NCBI GenBank assembly: GCA_041661045.1
Contig: JBAZVE010000001.1
Location: 690,001-722,000, forward strand
Direction of reading: 5' to 3'
From: Candidatus Saccharimonadota bacterium
Lineage (GTDB): Bacteria; Patescibacteriota; Gracilibacteria; UBA1369; 2-02-FULL-48-14
DNA length: 32,000 nucleotides
The stretch's first letter is position 1, and the number at the start of each line of letters is the position of its first letter. The translations under genes and the position numbers were made by a program. The notes under the pieces were generated by a model that worked only from the letters and a program-made list of their open reading frames with translations, was not told the origin of the DNA and ran no database searches. Positions 1,582 to 15,618 of this stretch are shown piece after piece.

Positions 1582-1647
1582 CAGGGGTGATATTATCTTT
1601 TTGATTATGTGTATATGCTATGGATAGTAATAAATGGGGCAACCGTC

Positions 1648-1692
1648 AGCTGATGTTCGTGTGTTGGTGAACTTGCTTAAATGGTAAAAATT
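1648..1692 (-). repeat. truncated attC-like site (left half only)
   Basis: agctgat-GTTC-gtgtgttggtg-aacttgcttaaatGGTAAAAAtt matches the left box, GKYC bulge, L stem and P2 5' arm with GGTAAAAT bulge of sites E and R. The right half is missing. Confidence 0.5.
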
Positions 1693-2979: not shown

Positions 2980-3567
2980 TTATTCAAATTTTAGAGTGGA
3001 CATCATTTCTGTTAGATCATCAGCTGGTGGATCAGAAACTTCATGTATCCCAAGAGTATAAAAAATTACTACTGTACCTTTATTTGCTGCGAAATAGTAT
3101 GTTGTACCGTTCAAATCCTCAAGAATACCTTTTGTAAAATCATTCTCTCCCAAATGTATCTCTTCGGGAGATGTGGTGAGATAGTTGTAGTTTTTACCAA
3201 TATACTCTTCGAGAGTTAAGTCCGTTGTTTCAGATTTCACTCCAATGTTAGGGACCGTGCATGGTGCGATCATGTCACCTGGTGGAAGGGATTCAACAAA
3301 GCCTTCTAGGTCAAAATCAAGACAAGATTCAAATACATCTTGTTCCCACAAACCTTCTTGGGAAGGTGGTGACCACCAATTCTCGTGTGCAACCAGTGTG
3401 CTTGGGTACTCAAATGTAAACCCATTACCTCCCCAAGTATTTATATTTTCATCCTCCGCATCTTCAATTTCGAGAATGGCTTCTCGTTTTTGCCACGAGT
3501 AAATTCCGGCCCCTAAAATTAATGAGACTAAGAGGAGGGAGAGAATGATTTTGCTATATTTTGACAT
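2980..3567 (-). CDS. N-terminally membrane-anchored secreted protein, unknown function
   Basis: The track ORF 2980-3612 is trimmed to the internal ATG at 3565-3567 (MSKYSKIILSLLLVSLILGAGIYSWQ), because the upstream 45 nt lie inside attC-like site B. Confidence 0.65.
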   Translation of the reverse strand: MSKYSKIILSLLLVSLILGAGIYSWQKREAILEIEDAEDENINTWGGNGFTFEYPSTLVAHENWWSPPSQEGLWEQDVFESCLDFDLEGFVESLPPGDMIAPCTVPNIGVKSETTDLTLEEYIGKNYNYLTTSPEEIHLGENDFTKGILEDLNGTTYYFAANKGTVVIFYTLGIHEVSDPPADDLTEMMSTLKFE

Positions 3568-3685
3568 AAGATTTCGCAGTATGCGATATTCACTGGCTGT
3601 ATAATATCGCACGAAGTGCAGTGCAGCCAGTGAATATGGGTGTAGCGAGGTGCAACCGAGCGAAACCGCATACTGCGTGTTGCCA
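3564..3685 (-). repeat. attC-like site (B), left box degenerate
   Basis: L stems are cgcagtatgcg / cgcatactgcg, followed by -T-gttgcca. The P2 arm is cactggctg..cagccagtg with a ..gcacGAAgtgc.. loop. The left box acataag is degenerate and overlaps a start codon. Confidence 0.6.
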
Positions 3686-3705
3686 TAGAATAATTACGCC
3701 AATTT

Positions 3706-4704: not shown

Positions 4705-4860
4705 GCAAGTGTTAGTTAAGTATTTAGTGGTGTACTGTAGGTTGGAACCGTCGACTCGTCAAGATTAAAATTTATTGTCTAATATGGTTCTATTACAGAA
4801 AATCAAATTTTCGTTTCTTTTTAAAAGTTGACGGGATGGAAAAAGAGAAAAATGTATTTT

Positions 4861-4935
4861 GCCTAATGTCCCTGCGTAGCCAACTTGGGTGAGGGCTTTT
4901 GTAGAAAAGCCCTCACCAGCTATGTAGTGTTGTCG
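4861..4935 (-). repeat. attC-like site (D), short form lacking P2
   Basis: gcctaat-GTCC-ctgcgtagc ... gctatgtag-T-gttgtcg. The body is caacTTGGGTGAG plus a perfect 13-bp hairpin ggtgagggctttt/aaaagccctcacc. The two L-stem mismatches are G.T on the plus strand. Confidence 0.7.
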
Positions 4936-4967
4936 GAAGTATCCAGCTCACTAACTTTTTCAAAACT

Positions 4968-5237
4968 TTAATTTGCTTCTTCGTATTTTTCTAAAAAATT
5001 ATGCATTCTTTTATATTTTTCGTGCACAACAACATCCTCTAGAATTCCTTCAGCTCTTGTCTTTAACAGAATTCGTAAATTTTGAATTATCTGTGGCTGT
5101 ATATTGCCTTCATTGTCTGTTCTAGGTTGTATTTTTGCAAAGACTTCTCCCAAACTAGTCTCACTTAAATGTTCAAGTGCGGCTGCTCTTAACTGAGTCG
5201 GCGTGATTTTTGATGGTGATGTTTCGCCTAGTTCCAT
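4968..5237 (-). CDS. hypothetical protein (cassette ORF)
   Basis: 89-aa ORF. Its last codons and stop lie inside the cassette's terminal inverted repeat. Confidence 0.6.
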   Translation of the reverse strand: MELGETSPSKITPTQLRAAALEHLSETSLGEVFAKIQPRTDNEGNIQPQIIQNLRILLKTRAEGILEDVVVHEKYKRMHNFLEKYEEAN

Positions 5238-5243
5238 TTTTAA

Positions 5244-5271
5244 ATTATATCATATATTTCAAATTTTGCAA
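5244..5271 (-). promoter_or_regulatory. sigma70-like promoter TTGCAA-N16-TATAAT, leaderless geometry
   Basis: On the minus strand the -35 TTGCAA is at 5266-5271 and the -10 TATAAT at 5244-5249. Only 6 nt separate the -10 from the ATG (5237). Confidence 0.5.
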
Positions 5272-5308
5272 ATTAAAGTTTTGAAAAAGAACCAATTCTG
5301 GATATTTC

Positions 5309-5445
5309 GTACAACGGCTGTGCGTTGGTGAAGTTGGACAGTAGTAAAATATACGAAGTGTGACTACTGGCCAACTTGGGTGAGGGCTTTATGGTTGAGC
5401 GAAGCCAGCCTAAAAAAAGACCGAACTGCTAACGCGCTGTTGTAC
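5309..5445 (-). repeat. attC-like site (E)
   Basis: gtacaac-GGCT-gtgcgttgg ... ctaacgcgc-T-gttgtac. P2 is aagttggacagtagt-AAAATAT-acGAAgt-..actactggccaactt, followed by TTGGGTGAG. It contains an exact GCGAAGC. Confidence 0.8.
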
Positions 5446-5492
5446 GATGAAGAAAAAAATGCGTCGCAATTAAAGCACAAATGAATGGCTTT

Positions 5493-5789
5493 CTAGAGGA
5501 GATAGTCAAGGTCAGTGACGAGACTGCCCGTAATGTTCCTAAGTGGTGCCCCCATTTCTGAAGAGGGGTATTTTTCTTGAAACTCAGATAGAGAAGCGTT
5601 TATGACAGGGCCATTTACTGTGAGAGCATATACCACAATGTCATTTTTTCTTCCCAAAATAACAACAGTTCCTCGAGTGCCAAGGTGATTTTTGCCAGTA
5701 AAAACATCTCCTCTTTGTGGGTTGCTCCAGATTTCGTGGGCAATATCTTGAGGAGTTTCTTCATTGCTGGACGCACATGACTCAGCCAT
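5493..5789 (-). CDS. hypothetical protein (cassette ORF)
   Basis: 98-aa ORF, the only long ORF between sites E and F. Confidence 0.6.
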   Translation of the reverse strand: MAESCASSNEETPQDIAHEIWSNPQRGDVFTGKNHLGTRGTVVILGRKNDIVVYALTVNGPVINASLSEFQEKYPSSEMGAPLRNITGSLVTDLDYLL

Positions 5790-5815
5790 TTTGTGATTTT
5801 TTAAATTGTCCTCTC

Positions 5816-5824
5816 ATTATAGCA
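5816..5824 (-). promoter_or_regulatory. extended -10 promoter (TGcTATAAT) for ORF 5493-5789
   Basis: The minus strand reads aTGcTATAATgagaggacaatttaaaaaatcacaaaATG. Confidence 0.45.
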
Positions 5825-5838
5825 TTTTTTCCTTTTTC

Positions 5839-5954
5839 GTACAACGGTCGCAGTATAGCTGAAGTTTATACATGGTAAAATGACCGAAAAGCCAACCAAG
5901 TATAAACTTGGGTGAGGGCTGATCTAGCCCGAACCAGCTATACTGCTGTTAGCT
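5839..5954 (-). repeat. attC-like site (F)
   Basis: gtacaac-GGTC-gcagtatagctg ... cagctatactgc-T-gttagct. It has a P2 with GGTAAAAT, then TTGGGTGAG and a gggct/agccc hairpin, then GAAC. Confidence 0.8.
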
Positions 5955-5962
5955 GATGTTTA

Positions 5963-6274
5963 CTAAATAGATATATCAGTTGGATTTTGTTCCGCATATC
6001 CAAATTTACCTAGGATGTGATTTGCAGCAATCCATAAATCAGAATAATCACCATTAACGATGGCGCTTGTTTCGTCTGGCGATAGATTAGTAACTCCAGT
6101 GGATGCAAAGTCTACTAAAATATCTGTGAGGATTGTATCCTCAGGATGTTCTCTGGCAACATTTAATAATGTGGCAGCGTCAGAGGACTCAGAATGCATC
6201 TTAATGATCTTTGCCAAACCCAAAACTACTTTTTCGTGGGCACTTCGCTTAACTGGTTCGTCATCTATACTCAT
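5963..6274 (-). CDS. hypothetical acidic protein (cassette ORF)
   Basis: 103-aa ORF between sites F and G. Confidence 0.6.
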   Translation of the reverse strand: MSIDDEPVKRSAHEKVVLGLAKIIKMHSESSDAATLLNVAREHPEDTILTDILVDFASTGVTNLSPDETSAIVNGDYSDLWIAANHILGKFGYAEQNPTDISI

Positions 6275-6282
6275 GTCAGTGC

Positions 6283-6309
6283 ATTATAATATATTTCGAT
6301 TGCATGCAA
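6283..6309 (-). promoter_or_regulatory. sigma70-like promoter TTGCAT-N15-TATAAT, near-leaderless
   Basis: On the minus strand the -10 TATAAT is at 6283-6288, 8 nt from the ATG at 6274. The -35 TTGCAT is at 6304-6309. The spacer is 1-2 nt short. Confidence 0.4.
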
Positions 6310-6317
6310 TAAATTTC

Positions 6318-6377
6318 AGCTAATGTTGGGAATGACTGAGCGAAGCGAAGGAATGAACCGCATAGTCATTGTTAGGC
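6318..6377 (-). repeat. attC-like site (G), 60-bp short form
   Basis: agctaat-GTTG..atgact-gaGCGAAGCGAAGgaatGAACc-gcatagtcat-T-gttaggc. It lacks P2 and keeps the GCGAAGC mini-hairpin and GAAC. Confidence 0.65.
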
Positions 6378-6396
6378 GATGTGAATTTTTCTCCAA

Positions 6397-6720
6397 TTAT
6401 TTAGTAGCTTCTTCTTCTTTTTCAAAAATCTTTGAAATCAATTCACGTACAAATGCTTTAGCTTGCTCTACGTCTAGTTCCTCAACATATCCGTCTTCAT
6501 CTAATTTACCATTAAGTACTCCAGCCCTAATTAAGCTTTCAAAAACAGCAAAATCATAGCTACCTGACCCATTAAATCTCTTACCATCAAAAATTCTTTC
6601 CGGATTATTTGTCCATGGGGCTACGGCAAGTTGACGGAGATATTCTCTAAGAGTAACTTCTTTTGCGTTATATGGTTCGTTGGGTTTAACACTGATGTCT
6701 AGAATTTCTTTGTGGTTCAT
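6397..6720 (-). CDS. hypothetical protein (cassette ORF)
   Basis: 107-aa ORF with a consensus promoter immediately upstream. Confidence 0.65.
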   Translation of the reverse strand: MNHKEILDISVKPNEPYNAKEVTLREYLRQLAVAPWTNNPERIFDGKRFNGSGSYDFAVFESLIRAGVLNGKLDEDGYVEELDVEQAKAFVRELISKIFEKEEEATK

Positions 6721-6739
6721 GGTTTTTGAAATAGAATTT

Positions 6740-6767
6740 ATTATATGTCAATCATAATATTTGTCAA
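6740..6767 (-). promoter_or_regulatory. consensus sigma70 promoter TTGACA-N16-TATAAT inside cassette
   Basis: The minus strand reads caacTTGACAaatattatgattgacaTATAATaaattctatttcaaaaaccATG. Confidence 0.65.
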
Positions 6768-6791
6768 GTTGAATGTGGGAAAATTCATTTC

Positions 6792-6897
6792 GCCTAATGT
6801 TCGTGAATAACCGAAGGTTGCTAATGGTAAAACATGCCGAAGGCGGACCGTTGGCAACTTTGGGCGAACGAAGTGAGCCGGTTATTCACTGTTGTAC
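6792..6897 (-). repeat. attC-like site (H)
   Basis: gcctaat-GTTC-gtgaataaccg ... cggttattcac-T-gttgtac. P2 is gttgctaatggt-AAAACAT-gccGAAggc-gg-accgttggcaac with two G.T pairs. It is followed by TTTGGGCGAA and cGAAg. The body is about 90% identical to site M. Confidence 0.85.
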
Positions 6898-6930
6898 GCT
6901 GTATTAAAATTTGATCGCGTTCAGCGAGCA

Positions 6931-6959
6931 TTGGAAGAGTGGCAATTTTTTGCTATAAT
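6931..6959 (+). promoter_or_regulatory. sigma70-like promoter TTGGAA-N17-TATAAT for inverted cassette ORF
   Basis: The -35 is at 6931-6936 and the -10 at 6954-6959. The -35 lies inside the cassette's terminal inverted repeat. Confidence 0.6.
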
Positions 6960-6982
6960 GTAAAGAATTAACTTTTTGTTCT

Positions 6983-7399
6983 ATGGCCATGGAAGGTCCT
7001 AATTACGACGATCCGATTGAGCAAGATAAGCAACACGCTTTGAATCAAATTAGAACTATTGGGCCAGAAAAACCAGTAGGGTATTTGCCAGTAGAAACCA
7101 TCACAGGTTATTGTGGTCAAAATTTTGATGTATTTGTAGCAGAATGTCGTCAGAGAGGTCACGAAACTCGTATATTCACGGGCGGAGGATGGCCTGGTTT
7201 TTCTGGCTCATTGTATGTATATGATAAAGTTTCTCTGCAAAATTTGCTCAATCGGAACCAAAGTATTCTGGAACAATCTGGTTGGCCACTGAATCCTGAT
7301 GAATTTGTAGCTAATCTTCATGTTTGGGTTCAAGAAGGAACTCCTATTTTTAAGTTGATTGCTCAAGCATTTGGAGATAAGTTCAGCGAAAGTCTTTAA
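6983..7399 (+). CDS. hypothetical protein (cassette ORF, inverted relative to array)
   Basis: 138-aa ORF, the only long ORF between sites H and I, with its own promoter. Confidence 0.65.
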   Translation: MAMEGPNYDDPIEQDKQHALNQIRTIGPEKPVGYLPVETITGYCGQNFDVFVAECRQRGHETRIFTGGGWPGFSGSLYVYDKVSLQNLLNRNQSILEQSGWPLNPDEFVANLHVWVQEGTPIFKLIAQAFGDKFSESL

Positions 7400-7447
7400 G
7401 CAAAAATTGCCACTCTTTCAATCCTGTTAGGGAAATTTTAGTATGGC

Positions 7448-7569
7448 GTACAACGTCCGAGACTATGAGAAGTCGGACAGGTGTAAAATACGCTGAAGGC
7501 GTACACCTGTCCAATTTGGGTGAACGACTGATCAAAGAGAAGGAGTGAACCTCATAGTCTCTGTTGTGT
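7448..7569 (-). repeat. attC-like site (I)
   Basis: gtacaac-GTCC-gagactatgag ... ctcatagtctc-T-gttgtgt. P2 is gtcggacaggtgt-AAAATA-cgcTGAAGgcg-t-acacctgtccaat, followed by TTGGGTGAA and ..GAAC. Confidence 0.85.
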
Positions 7570-7598
7570 GATGTTTTGCTGCAGTTACCCAGCGTCTA

Positions 7599-7627
7599 TA
7601 GACAAAATATATGTAAAGTGTTATAAT
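7599..7627 (+). promoter_or_regulatory. sigma70-like promoter TAGACA-N17-TGtTATAAT for inverted cassette ORF
   Basis: The -35 is at 7599-7604. The extended -10 has TG at 7619-7620 and TATAAT at 7622-7627. Confidence 0.6.
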
Positions 7628-7652
7628 TCTTACTTATCCCTAAAGCTTTTAC

Positions 7653-8027
7653 ATGAAGTCAACTACCGATTCAGATCAACCACATTTTAATGGACTGGAG
7701 ATATCAGAGGTGCCCAGAAAAATAAGAGTACGAACTACAACATATCCAAATGGGCTTGTTGGTGTTTTGTCTAGGAATGGCAATTCTGTGACATTTAAGA
7801 CATTAGAAGATGAGAATTACCCCGCTATACAGCAAGCAGGTGGTTATTGCGATGCTGTTTGGGAGTATCAATTTGAATTAGATACTAATGGACAGCCCAT
7901 TCGTACGGTAGAGAAAACGCTTGTAGTAAAGGAAGGTCAGTGGGCACCTTTGGACCCTAGCTTTCCCGAGCATATATCGGAGGGGCCTAATTATATGTGG
8001 AGTGTAATTACTGACACATTGTCATAA
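7653..8027 (+). CDS. hypothetical protein (cassette ORF, inverted relative to array)
   Basis: 124-aa ORF between sites I and J, with its own promoter. Confidence 0.65.
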   Translation: MKSTTDSDQPHFNGLEISEVPRKIRVRTTTYPNGLVGVLSRNGNSVTFKTLEDENYPAIQQAGGYCDAVWEYQFELDTNGQPIRTVEKTLVVKEGQWAPLDPSFPEHISEGPNYMWSVITDTLS

Positions 8028-8045
8028 AAGCTGCAGCAAAATTTC

Positions 8046-8162
8046 ACACAATGTTCGAGACTATGTAAAGTTTGCCAGTGATAAAATATGCTGAAGGCGG
8101 ATCACTGGCAAATTTGAGCGAAACGAGCAAAGCGAAGTGGAGCTACATAGTCTCTGTTGTGA
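8046..8162 (-). repeat. attC-like site (J)
   Basis: acacaat-GTTC-gagactatgta ... tacatagtctc-T-gttgtga. P2 is gtttgccagtgat-AAAATAT-gcTGAAggc-gg-atcactggcaaat, followed by TTTGAGCGAA and aGCGAAGt. Confidence 0.85.
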
Positions 8163-8180
8163 GAAGTTGCTTTGAACTTT

Positions 8181-8408
8181 TTATTTTGCTTTCGATTTGC
8201 TCATTTGATGTACGATGAGCGAAACAATCAGGCCAATAACTCCACCAACAATCATGCTAACGAAAACAACGGGCACAACTGGATTTGAGGATTCTAAATC
8301 TTGAGAGACAATGAATTGGATAGTGCTATAGACGGTGAGAGCTGAGACTAGCCCACAGAGGAGGCCTGTTGCAATGCCTGTTGTATAGAGATGTTTTGGA
8401 TGATGCAT
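8181..8408 (-). CDS. small two-TM membrane protein (paralog of 10213-10440)
   Basis: 75 aa, MHHPKHLY..two hydrophobic helices..SKSKAK. About 70% identical by eye to the ORF at 10213-10440. Confidence 0.7.
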   Translation of the reverse strand: MHHPKHLYTTGIATGLLCGLVSALTVYSTIQFIVSQDLESSNPVVPVVFVSMIVGGVIGLIVSLIVHQMSKSKAK

Positions 8409-8475
8409 AAGTGTAAAGTAAATTATTACCCTGATTGTTTAGACTCTTTTATATTATATGGTTCAAAGCAATTTC

Positions 8476-8581
8476 GTACAACGGTCGCGCATAAACGAAG
8501 AAGACCAGCGGTAGAATATCCCGTAGGGTTACCGCTGGTCAATTTGTGCGAACGAAGTGAGCTGTTTATGCGCTGTTGTAC
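8476..8581 (-). repeat. attC-like site (K)
   Basis: gtacaac-GGTC-gcgcataaac ... gtttatgcgc-T-gttgtac. P2 is gaccagcggt-AGAATAT-cccGTAggg-tt-accgctggtc, followed by TTTGTGCGAA and cGAAg. Confidence 0.85.
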
Positions 8582-8598
8582 GATGCCGTGAAAAATGG

Positions 8599-8841
8599 CT
8601 ACTCTTTTACTGGAAGACAGGTAATTGTACCTAATTCACCACTAACCCAATTGCCATCTAAATCATATAGTCTTGTGATAGTAGATGTTCCGTCAGGATT
8701 GTTTTCCAAAACTTCTCCATGAAATTGTTTGGTAGGGTCATAGGGTTTAAGGCCAAAGTTACTCATCCAGCTAAATTGTGAAAAAGTAAATCTAGGCAAT
8801 TCTTTTGCTTCTTCAGGGGAAAGGGTACGTGGATTCTCCAT
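8599..8841 (-). CDS. hypothetical protein (cassette ORF)
   Basis: 80-aa ORF between sites K and L. Confidence 0.6.
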   Translation of the reverse strand: MENPRTLSPEEAKELPRFTFSQFSWMSNFGLKPYDPTKQFHGEVLENNPDGTSTITRLYDLDGNWVSGELGTITCLPVKE

Positions 8842-8897
8842 ATTTCATGGTGATTAGGAATGTAAACTACTCTAATTATAACATTTTTCACGGTTTC

Positions 8898-9036
8898 GTA
8901 CAACGTTCCGCACTATGCGAACTTGTGCAGGTGTAAAATAGCCGAAGGCGGACACCTGTACAAGTTGGGTGAAGGTTTTTCAGGCTGCGCAAAGCCAGCC
9001 GATCAGAAAACCTGAACCGCATAGTGCGTGTTGTAC
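8898..9036 (-). repeat. attC-like site (L), near-identical body to P
   Basis: gtacaac-GTTC-cgcactatgcg ... cgcatagtgcg-T-gttgtac. P2 is cttgtgcaggtgt-AAAATA-gccGAAggc-gg-acacctgtacaag with one G.T pair. It is followed by TTGGGTGAA, P3 aggtttt../..aaaacct and GAAC. Confidence 0.85.
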
Positions 9037-9062
9037 GCTGTAATAAAAAATGCGATGACAAA

Positions 9063-9296
9063 CTATTTATCTTTCTTTTCTTCAACTCCACCAACCCATT
9101 GAACAACAGGCTTTGCCACTTCTGGCGTAGTTAGAGGTTCGAAAACTACTTCCCCAGCTTTTTTTGCTGTATCACCTGCTTGTGAAACAACTGGAGGTTG
9201 TAAACCATCCCAAGTAACAGCAGGAGATTCTGGCTTGGCAGGTGGCAAAGCCTCCCATGCAGTTACAGGAGATTCTGTTTTTTTTGTGTCAGACAT
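9063..9296 (-). CDS. hypothetical Pro/Val-rich small protein (cassette ORF)
   Basis: 77-aa ORF between sites L and M. Low-complexity composition. Confidence 0.55.
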   Translation of the reverse strand: MSDTKKTESPVTAWEALPPAKPESPAVTWDGLQPPVVSQAGDTAKKAGEVVFEPLTTPEVAKPVVQWVGGVEEKKDK

Positions 9297-9352
9297 GTAA
9301 ATGTTTGTTAAATTATGGTCTATCAGATGATTATAGCATTTTTTGTTATGGC

Positions 9353-9458
9353 GTACAATGTCCGTGAATAACCGAAGGTTGCTAATGGTAAAATATGCCG
9401 AAGGCCAACCATTAGCAACTTTGAGCGAACGAAGTGAGCCGGTTATTCACTGTTAGGC
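9353..9458 (-). repeat. attC-like site (M), H family
   Basis: gtacaat-GTCC-gtgaataaccg ... cggttattcac-T-gttaggc. The P2 stem gttgctaatggt/accattagcaac is perfectly paired. Confidence 0.85.
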
Positions 9459-9472
9459 GTTGGTTAGGGGTG

Positions 9473-10003
9473 CTAACGAATTGATGAAAAAATTTCTTCG
9501 ACTAAACCAGCTTCTGCGACTGGGGGCTGAAAAAATATTTGGCAATAATAATCCTGAGATTTTTCTTCTGACCATTCAGCAAGACTGAGACCGATGTTGC
9601 CATTTCCAACATTATCTTGAGTGCCAAATATTGAGTATTTTACTTTTACTAATTCGTCTTGTTTCTCAAAAGTGCGAGTGTCGGATTGAAGTATTTCAGC
9701 CTCCATGCCGCCTTGCCAGTCGCAGTCGATCATCATTGTTTTCTCCTGTTTTGCGTCGTAAAACTGTGTATAAACTCCTCCTGAATCATAAGTCTCATCA
9801 GCATAAGTCCAAGATGAAGGGTAATCTAATTCATAATTAATGCTACCGAATGTGAAGGAGGTAAGCAGGGCTTCTGGGCTTTCGACTGCGACGACATCAT
9901 CTGTTTCAATGGTAATACCGGAATTTATAGCAGTATCATCTACTTGTGACGAACAGGCGGCAAAAGAAACTGTGATAGCGAATAGGAGTAGAAATTTTTT
10001 CAT
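9473..10003 (-). CDS. putative lipoprotein, unknown function (cassette ORF)
   Basis: 176 aa. The signal peptide has a lipobox-like MKKFLLLFAITVSFAAC. Confidence 0.7.
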   Translation of the reverse strand: MKKFLLLFAITVSFAACSSQVDDTAINSGITIETDDVVAVESPEALLTSFTFGSINYELDYPSSWTYADETYDSGGVYTQFYDAKQEKTMMIDCDWQGGMEAEILQSDTRTFEKQDELVKVKYSIFGTQDNVGNGNIGLSLAEWSEEKSQDYYCQIFFQPPVAEAGLVEEIFSSIR

Positions 10004-10078
10004 ATTTACTTGTTAAATGATACTTGAATCATATCGGAAGTTGTTGTTTTTACAAAACTTCTCGTACCTCTAACTTTC

Positions 10079-10192
10079 GCCTAACGTTCGCGCATATGCA
10101 AAGTGCGAGCGCGGTAAAATGTTAGCACGCAGTGCTACACCGCGCGAGCATTTGGGCGAGGCCTCAGCCAAGCTGCATATGCGCTGTTGTAC
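10079..10192 (-). repeat. attC-like site (N)
   Basis: gcctaac-GTTC-gcgcatatgca ... tgcatatgcgc-T-gttgtac. P2 is gtgcgagcgcggt-AAAATGT-tagcacGCAgtgcta-c-accgcgcgagcat, followed by TTGGGCGAG. Confidence 0.85.
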
Positions 10193-10212
10193 GGTGTTGC
10201 TTTGAGCAAACA

Positions 10213-10440
10213 CTATTTGGTTTTTGATTTACTAACTTGATGTACTGTGAAAGACACGATCGAGCCAATAATGCCTCCAACTAAAAGGCTTATAACTACA
10301 ACTGCAATAACTGGATTTGTTGTTTCTAAGTCTTGTGAAGCAATATATTGCATTGTGCTGTATACGGTTAGTGCAGAAATAAGACCGCAGAGGACACCTG
10401 TTACTAGACCTGTCACATAAAGATGTTTTGGATGATGCAT
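10213..10440 (-). CDS. small two-TM membrane protein (paralog of 8181-8408)
   Basis: 75 aa, MHHPKHLY...SKSKTK. Same length and architecture as the ORF at 8181-8408. Confidence 0.7.
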   Translation of the reverse strand: MHHPKHLYVTGLVTGVLCGLISALTVYSTMQYIASQDLETTNPVIAVVVISLLVGGIIGSIVSFTVHQVSKSKTK

Positions 10441-10501
10441 ATTGATGAAATTAATTATTGGCTTGATTGAATATGATTATTGTACTGCTCAAAGCAATTT
10501 C

Positions 10502-10625
10502 GTATAACGGCCGAGAATATGTGAAGTTTTGTAGCGGTACAATTTGCCCGAAGGGCTCACCACTACAAAACTTGGGTGAGCGACTGAGTGGAACGAAGGA
10601 GAGAACCACATATTCTCTGTTAAGT
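10502..10625 (-). repeat. attC-like site (O)
   Basis: gtataac-GGCC-gagaatatgtg ... cacatattctc-T-gttaagt. P2 is gttttgtagcggt-ACAATTT-gcccGAAgggc-tc-accactacaaaac, followed by TTGGGTGAG and ..GAAC. Confidence 0.85.
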
Positions 10626-10641
10626 GGTGTTGTGCTGATTT

Positions 10642-11154
10642 TTACTTACAATATCCAGTAGACTTGTCATAAGTCTTACCATCGGAGCAGCTGCAACGGG
10701 CATTTAACCAGTCGCCATCCGTTTCCGTACAGTTATTCCCTACGACATCAGTCCAAAAATAATATGCCCCTTCTGGGTTCGGCAAGCCAACAGACACAGC
10801 AAAAGCGGCTCCACCTGGACCGCCGAATGTCGTCTGGCAGTAACCTGTTTTTTTGTCGTACATCATCTCTTGCGTTTGCCTTTCTTCTAGCGGACATTCA
10901 CAAACACTGTCGCTAAATGAACCGCCACTTAATTCACAGTTATATCCAACTAATTCGTCCCATTCATTTGATGAAGTGACTTCAGTTATAGTTTCAGGTT
11001 CGTTTAGTTCTTGCTCTTGGACGGAAACTGATGGCGACTCTTGCGATTCATTCGTTTGCCAAAAGTAAACTCCTCCACCACCAATCAATGCAGCGATAAC
11101 TGCAACGAGTACCATTTTGCTTGTTTGAGACATAAATGTTTTGGTTAAATGCAA
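10642..11154 (-). CDS. Cys-rich membrane-anchored secreted protein, unknown function (cassette ORF)
   Basis: 170 aa. The N-terminal TM helix ends GGGGVYFWQ, followed by an acidic linker. The C-terminal domain has about 10 Cys and a repeated KxTGYC motif. The start may be the internal MSQTSK. Confidence 0.65.
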   Translation of the reverse strand: MHLTKTFMSQTSKMVLVAVIAALIGGGGVYFWQTNESQESPSVSVQEQELNEPETITEVTSSNEWDELVGYNCELSGGSFSDSVCECPLEERQTQEMMYDKKTGYCQTTFGGPGGAAFAVSVGLPNPEGAYYFWTDVVGNNCTETDGDWLNARCSCSDGKTYDKSTGYCK

Positions 11155-11185
11155 ATTTAGCTTACGGGAAAATCAGCGCAATGTC

Positions 11186-11323
11186 ACTTAACGTCCCGCA
11201 CTATGCGAGCTTGTGCAGGTGTAAAATAGCCGAAGGCGGACACCTGTACAAGTTGGGTGAAGGTTTTCAGGCTGCGCGAAGCCAGCCCATCAGAAAACCT
11301 GAACCGCATAGTGCGTGTTATAT
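11186..11323 (-). repeat. attC-like site (P), near-identical body to L
   Basis: acttaac-GTCC-cgcactatgcg ... cgcatagtgcg-T-gttatat. The body matches L almost base for base and contains an exact GCGAAGC. Both R-box hexamers differ from those of L. Confidence 0.85.
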
Positions 11324-11327
11324 GGTT

Positions 11328-11720
11328 TTATTTGCCATCTTCCAAGACGCAATCTGCTTCAATTTCAATCAGCCATTCTGGATTTATAAATCCAGACACT
11401 TCTGCGAAAGTACAGGCGGGCTGTATGTTAGAGAAAAATTCTCCGTGAGCTTTTGCAGCATCTTTCCACGTTTTCATATCTCTTAACAAGATACGTGTGC
11501 GAATTACATCTTCAAGCGAACCGCCGGCTTGCTCGATAACATTTTTGATAATCGTTAGGCAACGTTTCGATTGTTCATATACATTGCCTGGAGAATGAAC
11601 TGAACCATCTTCCGCAATTGGCGCAGTTCCAGTGACAGCGATAAAGTTGCCGATTCTTACAGCCCGCGAAAACCCAATTTCTTTTTCTAACGGCTGATTG
11701 TAAGTGATGTTTTTTCTCAT
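11328..11720 (-). CDS. ridA: RidA/YjgF/UK114 family protein (cassette ORF)
   Basis: 130 aa. FSRAVRIGNFIAVTGTAP...VYEQSKRCLTIIKNVIEQAGGSLEDVIRTRILL...IEIEADC is the typical RidA family pattern. Confidence 0.85.
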   Translation of the reverse strand: MRKNITYNQPLEKEIGFSRAVRIGNFIAVTGTAPIAEDGSVHSPGNVYEQSKRCLTIIKNVIEQAGGSLEDVIRTRILLRDMKTWKDAAKAHGEFFSNIQPACTFAEVSGFINPEWLIEIEADCVLEDGK

Positions 11721-11757
11721 AAATGTTTTTTAAGAGGTAGTGCAGGCAAATAATGCC

Positions 11758-11883
11758 ATATAACGGCTGGGTATAGGCGATGTTGTTGCGCGGTAAAATA
11801 TGCCACGAAGTGGCTCACCGCGCAACAATATGGGAGAACGAAGAAGCGAAGCGACTGAGTGAACCGCCTATACCCTGTTACAT
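11758..11883 (-). repeat. attC-like site (Q)
   Basis: atataac-GGCT-gggtataggcg ... cgcctataccc-T-gttacat. P2 is gttgttgcgcggt-AAAATAT-gccacGAAgtggc-tc-accgcgcaacaat. It is followed by an exact GCGAAGC and GAAC. Confidence 0.85.
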
Positions 11884-12004
11884 GATGTGCATATTTTCCT
11901 TAATTTCTTGAAAAGGAATTCTTCTTTAAAAGAGACTGATTTTGTTTTCTGTTTTGGGCGAGGGCAGAGGGGATTAAGGGGTGAATGCCCGAGCCCAAAA
12001 CTCC

Positions 12005-12832
12005 TCATTCCACGTCTCCTTGCGCTATCCTATTTTGTGCTTCTTGCATTAATTTCTCTGCTTCCTTTTTCATGAGATCATTAATTCTGTCTACTGCATC
12101 CATACTTCCGTTATATCTTTCCATTACTTTCTTATCCCTGAAGTATTTCAGAGTTGTTCCCTCGTATTTCCATACTGTCCAAAGACGATTTTTCATCAGC
12201 TTGAGGTTGTAAACTTTTGCTTCGGCAATGGAGAGGGCATTTTCAATCTTGAGTGAATTTACGAATGTCTCAATCATGGTTATGAATCCGCCAAAATTTT
12301 CGACGAAAGCTGTTCGTTGAGCTGGCGGTCTCATTCGTTCGGGTGTTGCCATTCTCTCATTGCGATCCAGCAACCTTTCAAAGTCATATCGAAATTGTTT
12401 AATATTGCCGTTTGCTGATCTTACCAAGTAATCAGTGATTAAAATTTTGTTGTGAACATAATAACTTTTGAGTCTCATTTTGATCAGATCTTCATCAAAG
12501 TAAATGGCAATGGTTGCTGGGAAATTAGTCTCTTGGATAGCATAAAAATTTGGGTCGGTTACTACTTGAACTTGCTCCACAATTGTTTTTGCTCTGGCAA
12601 TAAAATCTTCAAGCTGACTGACTGCGACAAGTAAATGACTTAATGTTTGAGAAAAAGCTATCTCTGTCCGCCTGATTGCTTCTTTTCTGTTTGATCTCTT
12701 TTGTAGGCACCCTTTAACTAAAAATCCAATAACTGAGAGAATGATTGCTAAAAATGGACCTAGGGCAGAGCCAATTAGCGTTTGCCATTTTTCGATAAAT
12801 TCAGTTGATGTGATTAATTTTAGTGTTTCCAT
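12005..12832 (-). CDS. hypothetical membrane-anchored protein (third gene of three-gene cassette)
   Basis: 275 aa with one TM helix near the N-terminus and a helical/coiled C-terminal part. No recognisable domain. Confidence 0.65.
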   Translation of the reverse strand: METLKLITSTEFIEKWQTLIGSALGPFLAIILSVIGFLVKGCLQKRSNRKEAIRRTEIAFSQTLSHLLVAVSQLEDFIARAKTIVEQVQVVTDPNFYAIQETNFPATIAIYFDEDLIKMRLKSYYVHNKILITDYLVRSANGNIKQFRYDFERLLDRNERMATPERMRPPAQRTAFVENFGGFITMIETFVNSLKIENALSIAEAKVYNLKLMKNRLWTVWKYEGTTLKYFRDKKVMERYNGSMDAVDRINDLMKKEAEKLMQEAQNRIAQGDVE

Positions 12833-12872
12833 TGCTTGTGGATGATACTCTTTTTACCCTATAAAAAACACC

Positions 12873-13508
12873 TTAATTGTATGAGGGAACAGAATGTTCC
12901 CTACAATCATAGTTGCCTTTTATGTTGGCGTTATAGTAACTGCCAAAGGAGGATGCTTTTTGCAGTTCTGCCCAAATTGACTTTGGTGTTTCGCAATAGT
13001 GATAATATTTTCCATTAATGTTCATAATCAAGTAACTGTTGCTTTTGTCGTACCATGCGCCTTCGATGAAAGAGCTTTTTGATGTATTTAAGTATTCAAA
13101 ATATGAACTATCGAGATTAACGGAATCTTTTCGATACTGAACAGCAACGTAATTCTGTTTTGATTGTGAATCTTTTTCGTACTTTTCAAGGCAATCAAAA
13201 AGAATATCGGTCATTAACGATTCTTCTTCGTCTTCAAGCTCGAAGGTCGGATATTCGCCTTGAGAATTTACGAAAGAACCATCTGGTTGAGTTATGTATC
13301 CCTGAGAATTCAGAAATTCATTTCCTTTTTGGGCGGCTTCAGAAAGACAAACGTCATAGAAAGGTGAAGATGTTATCTCCTCAATGGTATTTTTTGATGA
13401 ATTGTCTTGAATATCTGGCCTGAGAACGTAAAACATGAAGCCACCAATAAGAAGTGTCCAAAAGGCAACTATGATTATTATTGGTTTTTTGGAGGAATTA
13501 GTTTTCAT
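12873..13508 (-). CDS. hypothetical membrane-anchored secreted protein (second gene of three-gene cassette)
   Basis: 211 aa with an N-terminal TM helix (PIIIIVAFWTLLIGGFMFYVL) and a soluble domain. Confidence 0.65.
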   Translation of the reverse strand: MKTNSSKKPIIIIVAFWTLLIGGFMFYVLRPDIQDNSSKNTIEEITSSPFYDVCLSEAAQKGNEFLNSQGYITQPDGSFVNSQGEYPTFELEDEEESLMTDILFDCLEKYEKDSQSKQNYVAVQYRKDSVNLDSSYFEYLNTSKSSFIEGAWYDKSNSYLIMNINGKYYHYCETPKSIWAELQKASSFGSYYNANIKGNYDCREHSVPSYN

Positions 13509-13517
13509 AAGTCTGTA

Positions 13518-13781
13518 TCACGTTAAATTAGTAATAATGCCGTAAAGTATAGAAAAAATAATGAAGGAAAAAATAATTCCAAGCTGAATCAGTATGCTTT
13601 TTTTGAGTGGAAATTTGTATATTGCTTCCAAAATTATCCCCAAGGCCAATATCAACGTTAAAACTACTAGCCAAATTATAGAAAAATTAAAATGCCACAT
13701 TAACAGCTCTAACAATATGTAAACAAAAATAATGCCTTGGTTTGTTCTATTATTAAATGTTTTTGTTAGAGCGTTTTTCAT
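13518..13781 (-). CDS. hypothetical small integral membrane protein (first gene of three-gene cassette)
   Basis: 87 aa with 2-3 hydrophobic helices. It lies 9 nt upstream of the next ORF. Confidence 0.55.
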   Translation of the reverse strand: MKNALTKTFNNRTNQGIIFVYILLELLMWHFNFSIIWLVVLTLILALGIILEAIYKFPLKKSILIQLGIIFSFIIFSILYGIITNLT

Positions 13782-13914
13782 GGTTTGTATTATATAGTAA
13801 ATTGTTTTCGGAGCGAAGCGGAGAAAACTCCTTATTTCCCCTCTATAAAACAGAAAACAAAATCAGATCTCATTTTTAAGAATTGGCTTTAGCCAAAAGG
13901 AAAATATGCATTTC

Positions 13915-14036
13915 ATGTAACGTCCGTGTGTTGGCGAAGTTTGGACGTGGTAAAATTAGCACGAAGTGCGTACCACGGCCAAACTTGTGAGAGGCTTTTC
14001 TGGAGGAAAGGCCGAACCGCTAACACACTGTTATGT
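13915..14036 (-). repeat. attC-like site (R), attC of the integrase-proximal cassette
   Basis: atgtaac-GTCC-gtgtgttggcg ... cgctaacacac-T-gttatgt. P2 is gtttggacgtggt-AAAATTA-gcacGAAgtgc-gt-accacggccaaac, followed by TTGTGAGAG, a P3 hairpin and GAAC. Confidence 0.85.
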
Positions 14037-14104
14037 GCTGTTTCATTTTTCATTTGCGACTGAAGGGAGCAAATGTGAGCAAAGTGAACAGAGAAATGCT
14101 TTTA

Positions 14105-14473
14105 CTACTTCCCTTCGATGAGTTCTAGTAAACGACTGCAATATTCTTCAACCGCTTCAGCACCACTAGCTGTTATTGTATCAAAATTCTGTCTAAGTTC
14201 ATTCATGATGGAATCAAAGGCGGCGATAGCCTCAGGGTTGCTTAATTGCATAGCCAGATCTGCTTGATCTTCGTTATATGTGCTACGCAAATACTCTTCG
14301 TAATTACGGAGAAATCTGCGAGGGTTTCCACCTGTATCTTGCCCACTAAAGGCATATTGGATGGCCCCCATCATATTGCGTGCCTGACGATCGAGTTTAC
14401 AGCCTCGAGAAAAATTATTTCTAATAATGTCTAATACATGATCTCTTTGGCTGTCGCCGCCTTCGATACGCAT
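14105..14473 (-). CDS. hypothetical protein (first, integrase-proximal cassette ORF)
   Basis: 122-aa ORF between site R and the attI-like junction. Confidence 0.6.
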   Translation of the reverse strand: MRIEGGDSQRDHVLDIIRNNFSRGCKLDRQARNMMGAIQYAFSGQDTGGNPRRFLRNYEEYLRSTYNEDQADLAMQLSNPEAIAAFDSIMNELRQNFDTITASGAEAVEEYCSRLLELIEGK

Positions 14474-14523
14474 ATTTTTTGGATTAAGTGATTAAAAGCA
14501 TTTCTCTAAAAAATGGAATGGCA

Positions 14524-14760
14524 CATAACTCGTTTCTAACGGAAAACAGTGCGGCTAGCAAGGGGGAATGGGGTGTTTTGGTGAAATGGGGGAGGAGGAG
14601 TGAAGAAACGAGTTGTGGGGAGTGGGGTGACAAAAAGGTGAATTCTGTAAGGAATTTGTCAGGTTTTTGTCATGAATTTGTCAGAAGGGCGGGGTGGGAG
14701 TGGGAAAAATTCAGGAAAGTTTAAGGAAAAATTCAGAAAAAATTCAGGATTTTTTCAGGT
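14524..14760 (-). promoter_or_regulatory. attI-like junction and intI/cassette intergenic control region
   Basis: acataa|c at 14524-14530 is the exact complement of the site R right box gttatgt, and the cassette inverted repeat ends there. Further right lie 2x GAATTTGTCAG (14652, 14674; 22 bp apart), 3x AAAAATTCAGR (14705, 14727, 14738) and a tract of (R)TGGGG runs (14562-14704). Confidence 0.6.
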
Positions 14761-14805: not shown

Positions 14806-15618
14806 ATGGAACTCAAAGAAGCTTTGGCCTTAATGGAAAGAGAGCTTCGGCTGAGGCATTACAGCTCTAAAACGGTGAAAAATTACTTAAGATGTGTGGA
14901 GCTTTATTTTTCGGGGAAGAAAAGTTTGGCGTATCGGGAGGAGGAGCTCAAAGGGTTTTTGTTTGGGAAGCTTGAAGCTGGGGCGGCGCCGGAGACGGTG
15001 AATCTTTATCTTTGTGCGGTGAAGTTTTTTTATAAACAATGTTTGCACTTTAAGGGTATTGTGAAAGTTCGTTTTGCGCGAAGAAATGTGCGCTTGCCGG
15101 TGGTGCTTTCGAGGGAGGAGATCCTTAAGATTTTAGAATTTATTCCCAACACAAAGCACCGTTATTTGGTGGCGCTGGCGTATGGGGCGGGGCTGCGCGT
15201 GAGTGAGGTGGTTCGGTTGAGGGTTGCAGATCTTGATTTTGCACGGAAGCTGCTTGTGGTGCGAGAAGGGAAGGGTGGCAAAGCGAGGGTGACGCTTTTG
15301 CCCGAAAATTTGAGGGAAGAGCTGAAGAGTTTTGTTGTGGGGAAAGTGGCGATGGATTTTGTGTTTGAGAGTGAACGGGGTGGGGCTTTGAGTACACGGT
15401 CGGCTCAAAAGGTTTTTGCGGTGGCTTTGGAGAAAACGGGACTGCAGAAAGAGGCTTCGTTCCATTCTTTGCGGCACAGTTTTGCGACGCATTGTTTGGA
15501 AAATGGAGTGGACAGTCGCTTCATTCAAAAACTGCTTGGACACAGTGCCATTCGTACTACAGAAAGGTATACGCAAGTGAGTCAGGTGAGTTTGGCGGGA
15601 ATTCGGAGTCCACTTTAG
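14806..15618 (+). CDS. IntI-like tyrosine recombinase lacking the IntI-specific insertion
   Basis: About 270 aa from the ATG at 14806 (the track starts at TTG 14761). Blocks shared with IntI1 are RLPVVLSxEE, YGAGLRVSE, LRVADLDF, VREGKGGKAR, HSLRHSFATH, LLGHS and ERYTQV, plus the C-terminal GIRSPL. Only about 58 aa separate GKGGKAR from HSLRH, against about 105 in IntI1. Confidence 0.85.
   Translation: MELKEALALMERELRLRHYSSKTVKNYLRCVELYFSGKKSLAYREEELKGFLFGKLEAGAAPETVNLYLCAVKFFYKQCLHFKGIVKVRFARRNVRLPVVLSREEILKILEFIPNTKHRYLVALAYGAGLRVSEVVRLRVADLDFARKLLVVREGKGGKARVTLLPENLREELKSFVVGKVAMDFVFESERGGALSTRSAQKVFAVALEKTGLQKEASFHSLRHSFATHCLENGVDSRFIQKLLGHSAIRTTERYTQVSQVSLAGIRSPL

Follow-up and report, generated by a model that had tools for sequence, protein, structure and literature searches.

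The 32-kb window analyzed here, from a bacterium of the candidate phyla radiation (CPR), carries, at 14806..15618 on the plus strand, the gene of a 270–amino acid tyrosine recombinase that is IntI-like and lacks the IntI-specific insertion (I2 region). The gene is divergent from an array of cassettes and adjoins a putative attI (14520..14614, plus strand), which contains a sequence match to the box of the nearest array site and an inverted repeat. Each cassette consists of an ORF followed by its site, and the array reads leftward on the minus strand from attI at ~14.52 kb. The first-cassette ORF (14105..14473, minus strand) has a 34% identical homologue that is a cassette in the array of another locus, L056.

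The array contains 13 full-length sites and one short site, all on the plus strand; the full-length sites span 5309–14036. The leftmost, S01 (5309..5445; 113 bits), consists of an R box, bulge, L stem, P2, P3, L′, and a second R box. The other full-length sites are S02 (5839..5954; 98 bits), S04 (6792..6897), S05 (7448..7569; 124 bits), S06 (8046..8162), S07 (8476..8581), S08 (8898..9036), S09 (9353..9458), S10 (10079..10192), S11 (10502..10625), S12 (11186..11323), S13 (11758..11883), and S14 (13915..14036), the last being closest of all to the recombinase. The short site, S03 (6318..6377; 17 bits), is devoid of P2; its R boxes nevertheless match the adjoining cassettes. Decayed sites, also on the plus strand, lie to the left. 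The one at 3560..3687 (54 bits) retains L, P3, and a P2 whose bulge reads TATAAT, while its 5′ R box and the bulge next to it are deleted; the one at 4859..4939 (31 bits) has lost nearly all of P2. Reading of the sequence revealed the 5′ half of a site at 1647..1692 (plus strand) and further remnants at ~2523–2575, ~2928–2965, and ~4283–4310.

A sequence-only reading of this DNA had described the sites as attC-like, with a conserved three-way junction, and folding with DNA parameters gave the same junction in all 13 full-length sites. The covariation that it had noted, with stems that differ between sites and stay complementary, proved real: in a window alignment (A1) built by MAFFT without regard to structure and not fitted to any, 29 of 38 pairs changed on both sides. 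Pairing was found in 95.3% of cells over these 38 pairs, compared to 29 to 45% when partners were slid, and none of 500 shuffles attained the observed values. The L stem of the window sites was 100% paired, with 9 of its 10 pairs covarying. Over window, genome, and metagenome sites, pairing was 93 to 95% (30 to 45% in slid controls), percentages that are inflated in alignments A3 and A4, since these were fitted to the model, and not in A1.

The R stem is 8 bp long and is closed by an invariant G·T pair, after which comes a 3-nt bulge on the cleaved arm; the L stem has 10 to 11 bp and no extrahelical bases. The junction is tight, with one G between L and P2, one G between P2 and P3, and no nucleotide between P3 and L′. 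P2 has the form first described: its stem finishes with GGT, AAAAT(A/G)T bulges out on the 5′ side, and a GAA-capped mini-hairpin is followed by ACC. CGAAG occurs 21 times in the 13 sites (~1.9 expected), and its complement CTTCG does not occur. The bulge motif, thought to be constant, is so within one subclade (GGTAAAAT) but not in relatives, which carry GGTATAAT; in distant lineages P2 is short and has no bulge, and most lineages are without it.

Several segments previously taken as single-stranded are parsed differently by this analysis. The base of P2 is a helix of AAG with the TT of TTGGG (A-T, A/T-T/A, and G·T), both of which had been read as unpaired. RCC is the partner of GGY, and their Y:R pair covaries, being T-A in six and C-G in five window sites and 86 versus 34, respectively, in metagenome sites. 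The GA opposite GA forms a tandem G·A mismatch that prolongs P3; its G·A pair is retained in 136 of 150 sites, and the second position is A·G or is swapped for A-T or G·T. The GKYC segment, described as lying opposite a single T, is a G·T wobble followed by 3 nt (TTY or KYC) that bulge out on the R′-L′ arm only, with nothing on the opposite side. At least 96% of sites have this bulge. On the 3′ arm, the R and L stems leave nucleotides unpaired in no more than 5 sites of 150 in one set and no more than 4 of 87 in the other. The R box, given as RYYYAAC, holds as a box, and (C)RYAYAAC describes it more closely. Genuinely unpaired are the 3-nt bulge after AAC-G, a single G at each of two junction positions, the AAAAT bulge, and the GAA loops. 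Most of the sequence that had been counted as conserved and unpaired is thus predicted to be paired or to form G·A pairs at the junction core, and the argument for extra protein contacts drawn from it was built on a wrong parse.

The two strands of the sites are not equivalent. The plus strand is more stable than the minus strand in 217 of 237 sites, by a mean of 3.1 kcal/mol (P = 9e-37), and only the plus strand folds well. G·T is commoner than A·C (110 versus 65), and CGAAG outnumbers CTTCG by 187 to 3. Covariation and strand asymmetry favor the plus (bottom) strand as the strand that would fold.

These data bear on the possibility that the sites are duplex Xer-type modules of the pdif kind, with the recombinase binding both R-box ends as double-stranded DNA and the hairpin being incidental. 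The recombinase is indeed Xer-sized and Xer-like, the R arm resembles a dif arm, and pdif-type modules are already known (PMC7399989). We nevertheless regard this reading as very unlikely: three nested helices covary, among them two internal local hairpins that would be superfluous in a duplex binding site; strand asymmetry is strong (G·T/A·C, CGAAG/CTTCG, and folding energy); and homology between sites breaks at one R box of the two (see below).

Very little credence is given to a role of the sites in transcription or at the RNA level, as terminators, inter-cassette insulators, or promoters, the last suggested by the TAAAAT of the bulge and the TATAAT of relatives. TATAAT is the −10 consensus and is often preceded by TG, and the cassettes appear to have their own promoters. 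However, a promoter scan found none at the site bulges, where the sole −35–like hexamer lies 4 to 6 nt rather than 16 to 18 nt away; a plus-strand promoter would run antisense to 20 of 24 cassette ORFs; cassette mRNA has the minus-strand sequence, with A·C and C·T mismatches in the fold; the bulge is missing in most lineages; and no Rfam family was matched by the sites, even at E values up to 5. The hammerhead ribozyme, which is defined by a conserved core CUGANGA ... GAAA and a cleavage triplet, was considered for its identical three-helix topology and tandem G·A and was rejected, as the core UGGGYGA lacks C3, U4, and A6 and there is no Rfam match.

Exchange of cassettes has left its trace in the boxes. 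When boxes were compared across 118 adjacent site pairs, the five variable nucleotides in the 3′ box of one site and those in the 5′ box of the next were complementary at 4.14 of 5 positions, perfectly so in 55% of pairs. Within sites, complementarity was 2.77 of 5 (8% perfect), the random level being 2.62. The halves of R boxes are therefore swapped across cassettes. Five segments that are duplicated or shared were informative: their homology ends at the 5′ box only (site positions 8–13; once within the first 28 nt) and, where it extends the other way, continues unbroken through the 3′ box. The crossover side is taken from these five boundaries, which place the crossover (..AA^C) within the 5′ R box on the window plus strand, the integron “bottom” strand. 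The box consensus is (C)RYAYAAC / GTTRTRY(G), with AAC and GTT 92 to 100% conserved; flanking bases (T at −4 and C at −1) are conserved as well, giving an R arm of 10 to 11 nt.

At the putative attI, GCACATAAC (14521–14529) is the exact reverse complement of the S14 3′ box GTTATGTGC (nine of nine positions), and we infer an attI crossover at 14528^14529. An 11-bp inverted repeat formed by AACTCGTTTCT (14527–14537) and AGAAACGAGTT (14604–14614) is common to the window and locus L001, and an integron layout, with a recombinase gene, attI, and a one-orientation array, is found in both. Cumulative GC skew revealed no switch in the window, and attI is not located at such a switch.

The top family match of the recombinase is the integron integrase model TIGR02249, with 194 bits against a cut-off of 265 and the match split into two stretches; PF00589 (Pfam) is matched at 5e-39. 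Assignment as a XerA, XerC, or XerD chromosome-dimer resolvase was rejected, the NCBIfam scores being 190, 160, and 142 against cut-offs of 220, 335, and 330, respectively. In the clade alignment, R131, K156, H220, R223, and H246 never vary, and Y255 is almost as constant. VchIntIA (2a3v) is the best fold match of the predicted recombinase structure (pLDDT 85). Residues 192–214 align to residues 181–246 of VchIntIA, 21 residues facing ~65, and ~43 residues corresponding to VchIntIA 182–245, the IntI-specific additional domain around patch III with its I2 helix, are missing; the predicted structure likewise has no helix at residues 178–196 and no extra helix of the I2 region. The absence of the IntI insertion, suspected from the sequence, is thus borne out by the VchIntIA alignment, the split TIGR02249 match, and the lengths of clade members (259 to 288 amino acids in 30 of 30). 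The view presented is that of a 32-kb window, and a second, classical IntI may be present elsewhere in these genomes.

The site design tracks this short-recombinase clade. In CPR genomes, 28 loci include 3 kb or more of sequence ahead of the recombinase gene; 26 of these carry sites, always upstream of the gene and on the same strand. A metagenome scan that started from the DNA motif yielded 120 site-bearing loci; 14 of them hold a short recombinase of the clade, all 14 with the same site-gene geometry and none with a long IntI. Many CPR assemblies end just upstream of the clade recombinase gene. The junction core (G, AWGTT / AAYWT, G, GGYGA / GARCC) and the TAT of the L stem are 84 to 100% conserved over 237 sites, i.e., 87 sites from 32 genome loci and 150 metagenome sites. 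The sites span many CPR lineages and their stem sequences vary freely; only distal P2 and distal P3 are variable parts. While clade recombinases are only 40 to 67% identical, the junction core is kept at 89 to 100% across dozens of CPR lineages, so the conservation is not a matter of recent common descent, as had been argued from the window.

This spread was weighed against an explanation by which the sites belong to a sedentary chromosomal integron as ordinary attC, their constant motifs reflecting similarity within a lineage (descent or concerted evolution) without added function. Sites within chromosomal arrays and taxa are known to be alike (PMC8352920), and two pairs in the window are close copies: the bodies of S04 and S09 are 93% identical, and the first 78 nt of S08 and S12 are 97% identical. 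We consider the explanation unlikely, as the core is kept in 237 sites from dozens of CPR lineages while stems turn over completely, the 3′ junction motifs are conserved also in sites selected by their 5′ half alone, and neither the extrahelical bases nor the I2-bearing integrase that mark classical integrons are present.

The likeness to classical integrons is otherwise extensive. Classical attC sites (59-base elements) have the same inverted core boxes ..YAAC / GTTR.. at both ends and a G after AAC on the cleaved strand, and in both systems a crossover at bottom-strand AA^C leads to the exchange of box halves between cassettes. The attC bottom strand folds better, too, and bears the GAA loops (PMC2727003). 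Classical integrons also share ORF-plus-site cassettes arrayed next to a divergent recombinase gene with attI. In contrast, classical attC sites have two to three extrahelical bases on the R″-L″ arm, their definition including a conserved extrahelical G in L″ and a T 6 to 8 nt away (PMC2727003); CPR sites lack these and have as a spacer the one-sided 3-nt bulge on the other (R′-L′) arm. Classical attC is recognized mainly by structure (PMC2727003) and has a free “variable terminal structure,” whereas CPR sites are conserved far past the boxes, including T at −4 and C at −1 of a 10- to 11-nt R arm, and have a fixed three-way junction. The VCR sites of Vibrio superintegrons resemble CPR sites in being long (~120 to 130 nt), with a “complex branched secondary structure” (PMC2727003), and highly similar within a host. 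The VCR branch, however, is deletable and distal to an L stem with extrahelical G, T, and T, and VCR sites are used by an I2-bearing integrase; the CPR branch point is conserved in sequence across the superphylum and is placed where the L box should be, and the neighboring recombinase has no I2. IntI (VchIntIA) itself is the best match in sequence as well as fold, shares the catalytic R, K, H-x-x-R, H, and Y, and has the same gene position relative to the array; it differs in possessing the additional domain, whose I2 helix serves as the dock for extrahelical bases (PMC7790495, PMC9668308).

Among Xer-based systems, the attP(+) of CTX phage is a folded single strand that mimics dif for Xer proteins without I2 (PMC7790495). 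As in the model proposed below, the folded strand rebuilds a Xer core with an imperfect central region, and only one strand is exchanged (PMC7790495). CTX is, however, the genome of a phage; it integrates a single time into the host dif by means of housekeeping XerCD, unlike the hundreds of different CPR cassettes, found in arrays with a dedicated recombinase and with attI away from a GC-skew switch. The pdif modules of Acinetobacter plasmids are, like CPR cassettes, small gene modules with Xer-type site ends; pdif sites are 28-bp dif-like duplexes in alternating orientation, without a fold or a dedicated adjacent recombinase, and their modules lack the integron-type box exchange that CPR sites have.

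Our preferred explanation, with a probability of roughly 0.7, is that the repeats are the attC equivalents of a CPR chromosomal integron and that their plus strand folds into a dif-like core. The recombinase would act on these sites. The fold would recreate a Xer/dif-like core site. The R arm would be TTTCRYATAA, comparable over ~10 nt to ATTTAACATAA, the XerD arm of E. coli dif on the complementary strand. It would be followed by a 6-bp central region bearing the 3-nt bulge and by an L arm of 11 “bp,” in which the distal L stem (ATATSN) would be coaxially stacked on the base of P3 (GGY:RCC and the tandem G·A). P2 would branch within the L arm, between the two conserved Gs, and substitute for extrahelical bases. 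Conservation and general rules for three-way junctions suggest this arrangement of arms and central region, as well as the L/P3 stacking and the part given to P2. The bulge, G·T, G·A, and branch, present on the plus strand only, may then set which strand is used and hold the L-arm subunit in an inactive state, with the result that a single strand would be exchanged. In classical integrons these tasks fall to the extrahelical bases and to the I2 helix of IntI, neither of which is present here.

It could also be that a host factor, and not the recombinase, binds the junction core or the P2 bulge. Such a factor might be architectural, or it might be a polymerase or primase acting to make an excised cassette single strand duplex. 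The conserved bases exceed the needs of two recombinase subunits, and the −10–like sequence in an unpaired hairpin bulge recalls single-strand promoters and origins. This seems very improbable to us, as a candidate gene linked to the arrays was not found, and the bulge is subclade-specific, while the core is universal and geometrically fits an 11-bp arm.

A literature search found no paper describing this site type with this recombinase clade. The additional domain of IntI is held to be a defining integron trait (PMC9668308), and I2 together with extrahelical bases is held to be what enables attC recombination (PMC7790495, PMC2727003); gain of I2, in this account of integron origin, let a Xer-like recombinase use folded attC and avoid a lethal second exchange (PMC7790495). 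Judged from sequence, the CPR sites and their recombinase are a natural, widespread system that has the signatures of integron exchange and neither I2 nor extrahelical bases. CPR genomes rank among the smallest genomes known. We put at about even odds the broader proposal of a large, undescribed CPR-wide integron lineage, found also in at least one cultured spirochaete, that recombines cassettes through folded single strands by using a dif-like core with a one-sided bulge, G·T/G·A, and a conserved hairpin branch in place of I2 and extrahelical bases, and that is either ancestral to the IntI type or an independent solution. CPR platforms may escape tools for which the IntI-specific domain defines an integron, so CPR cassette arrays may be undercounted. 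The CPR system also raises a testable question, namely, how strand choice and single-strand exchange would be achieved without I2 or extrahelical bases.

The window belongs to a CPR bacterium. Between positions 1 and 14036, small ORFs, most of them on the − strand and without a Pfam match, are separated by repeats of 106 to 139 nt. At 5309–14036 (+), we mapped 13 of these attC-like sites at full length and one further copy of 60 nt; to the left of this range lie two decayed copies (3560–3687 and 4859–4939) and smaller remnants. A cassette consists of the site body and the gene located 3′ of it in + coordinates, i.e., an ORF followed by a site on the − strand. Most cassette proteins had no match in Pfam; the matches obtained were to RidA/L-PSP, a methyltransferase, an HTH protein, KTSC, and DUF2007. 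In the other arrays that we fetched, a homologue was found for a single cassette ORF.

Two − strand cassettes, 8181–8408 and 10213–10440, are paralogous (72% identity over 256 nt, a 75-aa ORF in each), and the sites flanking them differ from each other. The 75-aa ORF of the former matches the Pfam families DUF3792 and ECF_trnsprt weakly, below threshold. The cassette at 11890–13914 is unusually long (2.0 kb) and contains three ORFs on the − strand, encoding 275, 211 (with a KTSC domain), and 87 aa, along with GAA-hairpin remnants near 11960 and 13805; it possibly represents cassettes fused following site decay. Near-consensus sigma-70-type promoters at 6767–6740 (−, 12/12), 7599–7627 (+, 11/12), 6931–6959 (+, 10/12), and 5272–5244 (−, 10/12) are located directly 5′ of single cassette ORFs, both + strand ORFs included. 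Promoters may be carried by the cassettes themselves instead of being provided by one array promoter.

When folded with DNA parameters, every full copy adopts the same architecture: a 5′ R box, a bulge, an L stem, P2 and P3 hairpins, the L′ strand, and a 3′ box. In a MAFFT alignment of the window sites made without structure information, 38 pairs are supported, 29 of which changed on both sides. In total, 95.3% of cells pair, compared to 29 to 45% when the 3′ partners are slid by 1 to 3 columns, and none of 500 shuffles attained the observed values. The L stem is 100% paired, with 9 of its 10 pairs covarying. The three-way junction and the covariation of its stems, both proposed in the sequence-only reading, are thus confirmed.

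The same reading had treated several junction motifs as unpaired, and this part of its parse has to be revised. The “AAG” and the “TT” of TTGGG pair together and form the base of P2, while the G of “GKYC,” thought to face a lone T, pairs with that T as an invariant G·T, leaving a one-sided 3-nt bulge. “GGY” pairs with “RCC,” the third pair alternating between T-A and C-G (6 versus 5 in the window, 33 versus 29 in genome sites, and 86 versus 34 in metagenome sites). The GA located 3′ of GGY is opposite the GA located 5′ of RCC; the G·A pair is retained in 136 of 150 sites, and the second position is A·G or has A-T or G·T in its place. Tandem G·A pairs in a pyrimidine-GA-purine context are a stable helix element. 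The junction is tight: a single G links L to P2, another links P2 to P3, and P3 adjoins L′ directly. The 3-nt bulge, both junction Gs, and the GAA loops are what is conserved and truly unpaired; the AAAAT bulge of P2 belongs to this set only in the subclade of the window.

Known structured RNAs were considered as well. At gathering thresholds, the sole Rfam match of the window is a tRNA gene elsewhere, at 18548–18619 (+), and a search of 5200–14200 with E values up to 5 yielded nothing relevant. The hammerhead shares the helix order, and tandem G·A extends one of its helices; it was rejected, as its invariant core bases are missing from the sites.

Folding favors the + strand, which is the more stable one in 217 of 237 sites, with a mean difference of 3.1 kcal/mol (Wilcoxon p = 9e-37). 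With the two conserved G·T positions left out, G·T pairs outnumber A·C 110 to 65. CGAAG is found 187 times (26 expected), and CTTCG, its complement, 3 times (20 expected). Cassette mRNA would be of − strand sequence, so the structure is not under selection as cassette RNA. Were the sites duplex Xer modules with incidental hairpin potential, the three covarying helices and the strand asymmetry would remain unexplained, and we consider this explanation very unlikely.

The repeats behave as integron-type recombination sites. On average, 4.14 of the five variable bases in a 3′ box complement the 5′ box of the following site, with 55% perfect matches (118 adjacent pairs), compared to 2.77 of 5 and 8% for the 5′ box of the same site; the random level is 2.62. 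Such complementarity across cassettes indicates that crossover occurs inside the box and that cassettes are shuffled. In each of five duplicated or shared segments, the + strand 5′ box is where homology ends, at site positions 8 to 13 (for one segment, within the first 28 nt), while homology extending toward the 3′ box passes through it unbroken. The + strand thus corresponds to the integron “bottom” strand. Crossover takes place at AA^C, followed by G, as it does in classical attC (PMC2727003).

Beside the recombinase gene, GCACATAAC (14521–14529) complements the last site's 3′ box exactly, and no site body follows it. This context is as expected of an attI junction, and we place a putative attI at 14520–14614. 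When the attI regions of five loci were aligned, conservation was seen just between the window and the locus of its closest relative (L001). Right after the inferred crossover lies an 11-bp inverted repeat, AACTCGTTTCT (14527–14537) and AGAAACGAGTT (14604–14614), with a G-rich 66-nt loop and both arms identical in L001; attI itself may fold. Direct repeats are found between attI and the recombinase start, at 14651–14685 and 14705–14760: GAATTTGTCAG twice, AAATTCAG three times, and then TTTTTCAGG. Accessory binding of proteins or a role in regulation is possible for these repeats. A strong local excess of G over C (skew of 0.20 to 0.41) covers the attI region, the recombinase gene, and a ComEC gene (14000–17000). 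Cumulative skew climbs from one end of the window to the other, which places the locus away from a replication terminus.

The tyrosine recombinase (270 aa, 14806–15618) is 67% identical to its closest relative, which is encoded in a complete Peregrinibacteria genome. Of the NCBIfam models, it matches that of the integron integrase best, in two stretches and under the cut-off; Xer models score lower. By both sequence and predicted fold, the best PDB match is VchIntIA (structure 2a3v). Residues 192 to 214 of the recombinase are opposite VchIntIA residues 181 to 246, with ~43 residues absent, and the predicted structure (pLDDT of 85) has no extra helix in this region. The absent stretch is the IntI-specific additional domain, I2, which docks extrahelical bases and prevents exchange of the second strand (PMC7790495) and is treated as a defining trait of IntI (PMC9668308). 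In line with its absence, the sites carry no extrahelical bases, i.e., unpaired bases of classical attC, on the arm that bears them there.

Searching with a covariance model of the 13 window sites, we recovered this site type in the closest relative's array. Among 28 CPR genome loci in which 3 kb or more precedes a homologous short recombinase, the model finds sites in 26; in CPR loci, they are always upstream and on the same strand and never downstream. The lineages include Peregrinibacteria, Uhrbacteria, Dojkabacteria, Moranbacteria, Wolfebacteria, Gracilibacteria, and Saccharibacteria-labelled MAGs. Reciprocally, metagenome contigs were scanned with a 23-nt pattern limited to the 5′ half of the site. 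This yielded 120 loci, the first 100 of which carry 171 sites, on one strand per locus. Fourteen loci contain a strong match to the recombinase clade (12 complete, 271 to 298 aa from stop to stop, and 2 cut by the contig end), all arranged with the same geometry, and no long IntI-type protein was detected. The 3′ junction motifs, which lie outside the search pattern, are still 91 to 99% conserved in metagenome sites. The site design therefore tracks the recombinase clade.

In many assemblies (L004–L069, match starts 81–700), the contig runs out within a few hundred bases 5′ of the recombinase gene; the repeat arrays probably break the assemblies and are thus underrepresented in MAGs. The L001 array is broken up by several insertion-sequence genes (rve, DDE_Tnp_1, and Y1_Tnp; 1721–4442 and 7157–9262) and contains a HicA toxin cassette and a duplicated cassette (191–861 and 4522–5182, 96% identical). 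A clade recombinase of 384 aa, extended at its N terminus and lacking the IntI insertion in its core, is also encoded by a cultured spirochaete, Brucepastera parasyntrophica RmG11 (NZ_CP084606.1; L072, 9653–10807). At least six sites of the same architecture lie downstream of it on the opposite strand (13087–20363), making this strain a possible experimental model.

The family-wide consensus reads T-T-T-C-R-Y-A-Y-A-A-C-G, a T-T-Y bulge, S-S-G-N-A-T-A-T-S-N, and G; then A-W-G-T-T, P2, A-A-Y-W-T, and G; and finally G-G-Y-G-A, P3, G-A-R-C-C, N-S-A-T-A-T-N-C-S-S, and T-G-T-T-R-T-R-Y-G. This core is kept superphylum-wide while the stems turn over freely, a pattern that shared descent alone fails to produce; we regard it as an unlikely source of the conserved motifs. 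Binding of a host factor to the core or the bulge is another reading of this conservation, one that we hold to be quite improbable.

In distant lineages, P2 is 7 bp long with a GAA cap. The P2 bulge GGTAAAAT is restricted to a Peregrinibacteria-like subgroup, where relatives carry GGTATAAT. It contains TAAAAT in the window (e.g., 5347–5353) and TATAAT, the −10 consensus, in relatives (L043:1219–1343, L056:1868–2015, and L022:4843–4980), and it is also similar to the ATAA end of the R arm. No promoter was called at the bulge of any site, the sole −35-like hexamer (TTGCCA or TTGACA) being only 4 to 6 nt 5′ of it, and promoter-like matches are not enriched (30 versus 23.3 ± 4.8). Terminator-like sites, 11 compared to 8.2 ± 3.1 expected, are not systematically located at the repeats. 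A promoter, terminator, or RNA role of the conserved elements is very unlikely, as both orientation and spacing misfit.

We propose that the sites are recombined as folded single strands. The R arm, TTTCRYATAA, would end at the cleavage point of the fold. It resembles what we take to be the XerD arm of E. coli dif in the complementary-strand reading, ATTTAACATAA; the E. coli dif sequence was confirmed as present in the literature. Six base pairs (C-G, G·T, and four L-stem pairs), with the bulge within, would follow 3′ of the R arm, and the second arm would span 11 positions: six L-stem pairs (ATATSN), three GGY:RCC pairs, and two G·A pairs. Since zero nucleotides separate P3 and L′, they should stack coaxially under the general rule for three-way junctions. 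In this stack, the 3′ strand GARCC-NSATAT would be unbroken, and P2, placed between the two conserved Gs, would exit and re-enter the opposite strand in the middle of the second arm. One recombinase subunit would bind the R arm and cleave, while a second subunit would bind the L/P3 arm and be held inactive by the mismatches and the branch. Strand choice would come from the + strand–specific bulge, G·T and G·A pairs, GAA loops, and branch. A precedent for a folded single-strand site used by an I2-less recombinase is provided by CTX phage, where I2-less Xer enzymes use a folded single strand mimicking dif and carry out single-strand exchange (PMC7790495).

Branched terminal structures (VCR), GAA loops, and lineage-specific likeness of sites are already known. 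No relevant paper emerged when the literature, in sources that largely leave out subscription journals, was searched for integrons or attC in CPR, Patescibacteria, or named CPR phyla, for attC with three-way junctions, and for insertion-less integron integrases. Four features are in no paper that we found: the absence of extrahelical bases, a bulge confined to one side on the cleaved arm, a sequence-conserved junction replacing the L box and variable terminal structure, and a constant partnership with an I2-less integrase across CPR. Judged from its sequence, the system is integron-like in operation, yet it fails two defining tests of classical attC and IntI.
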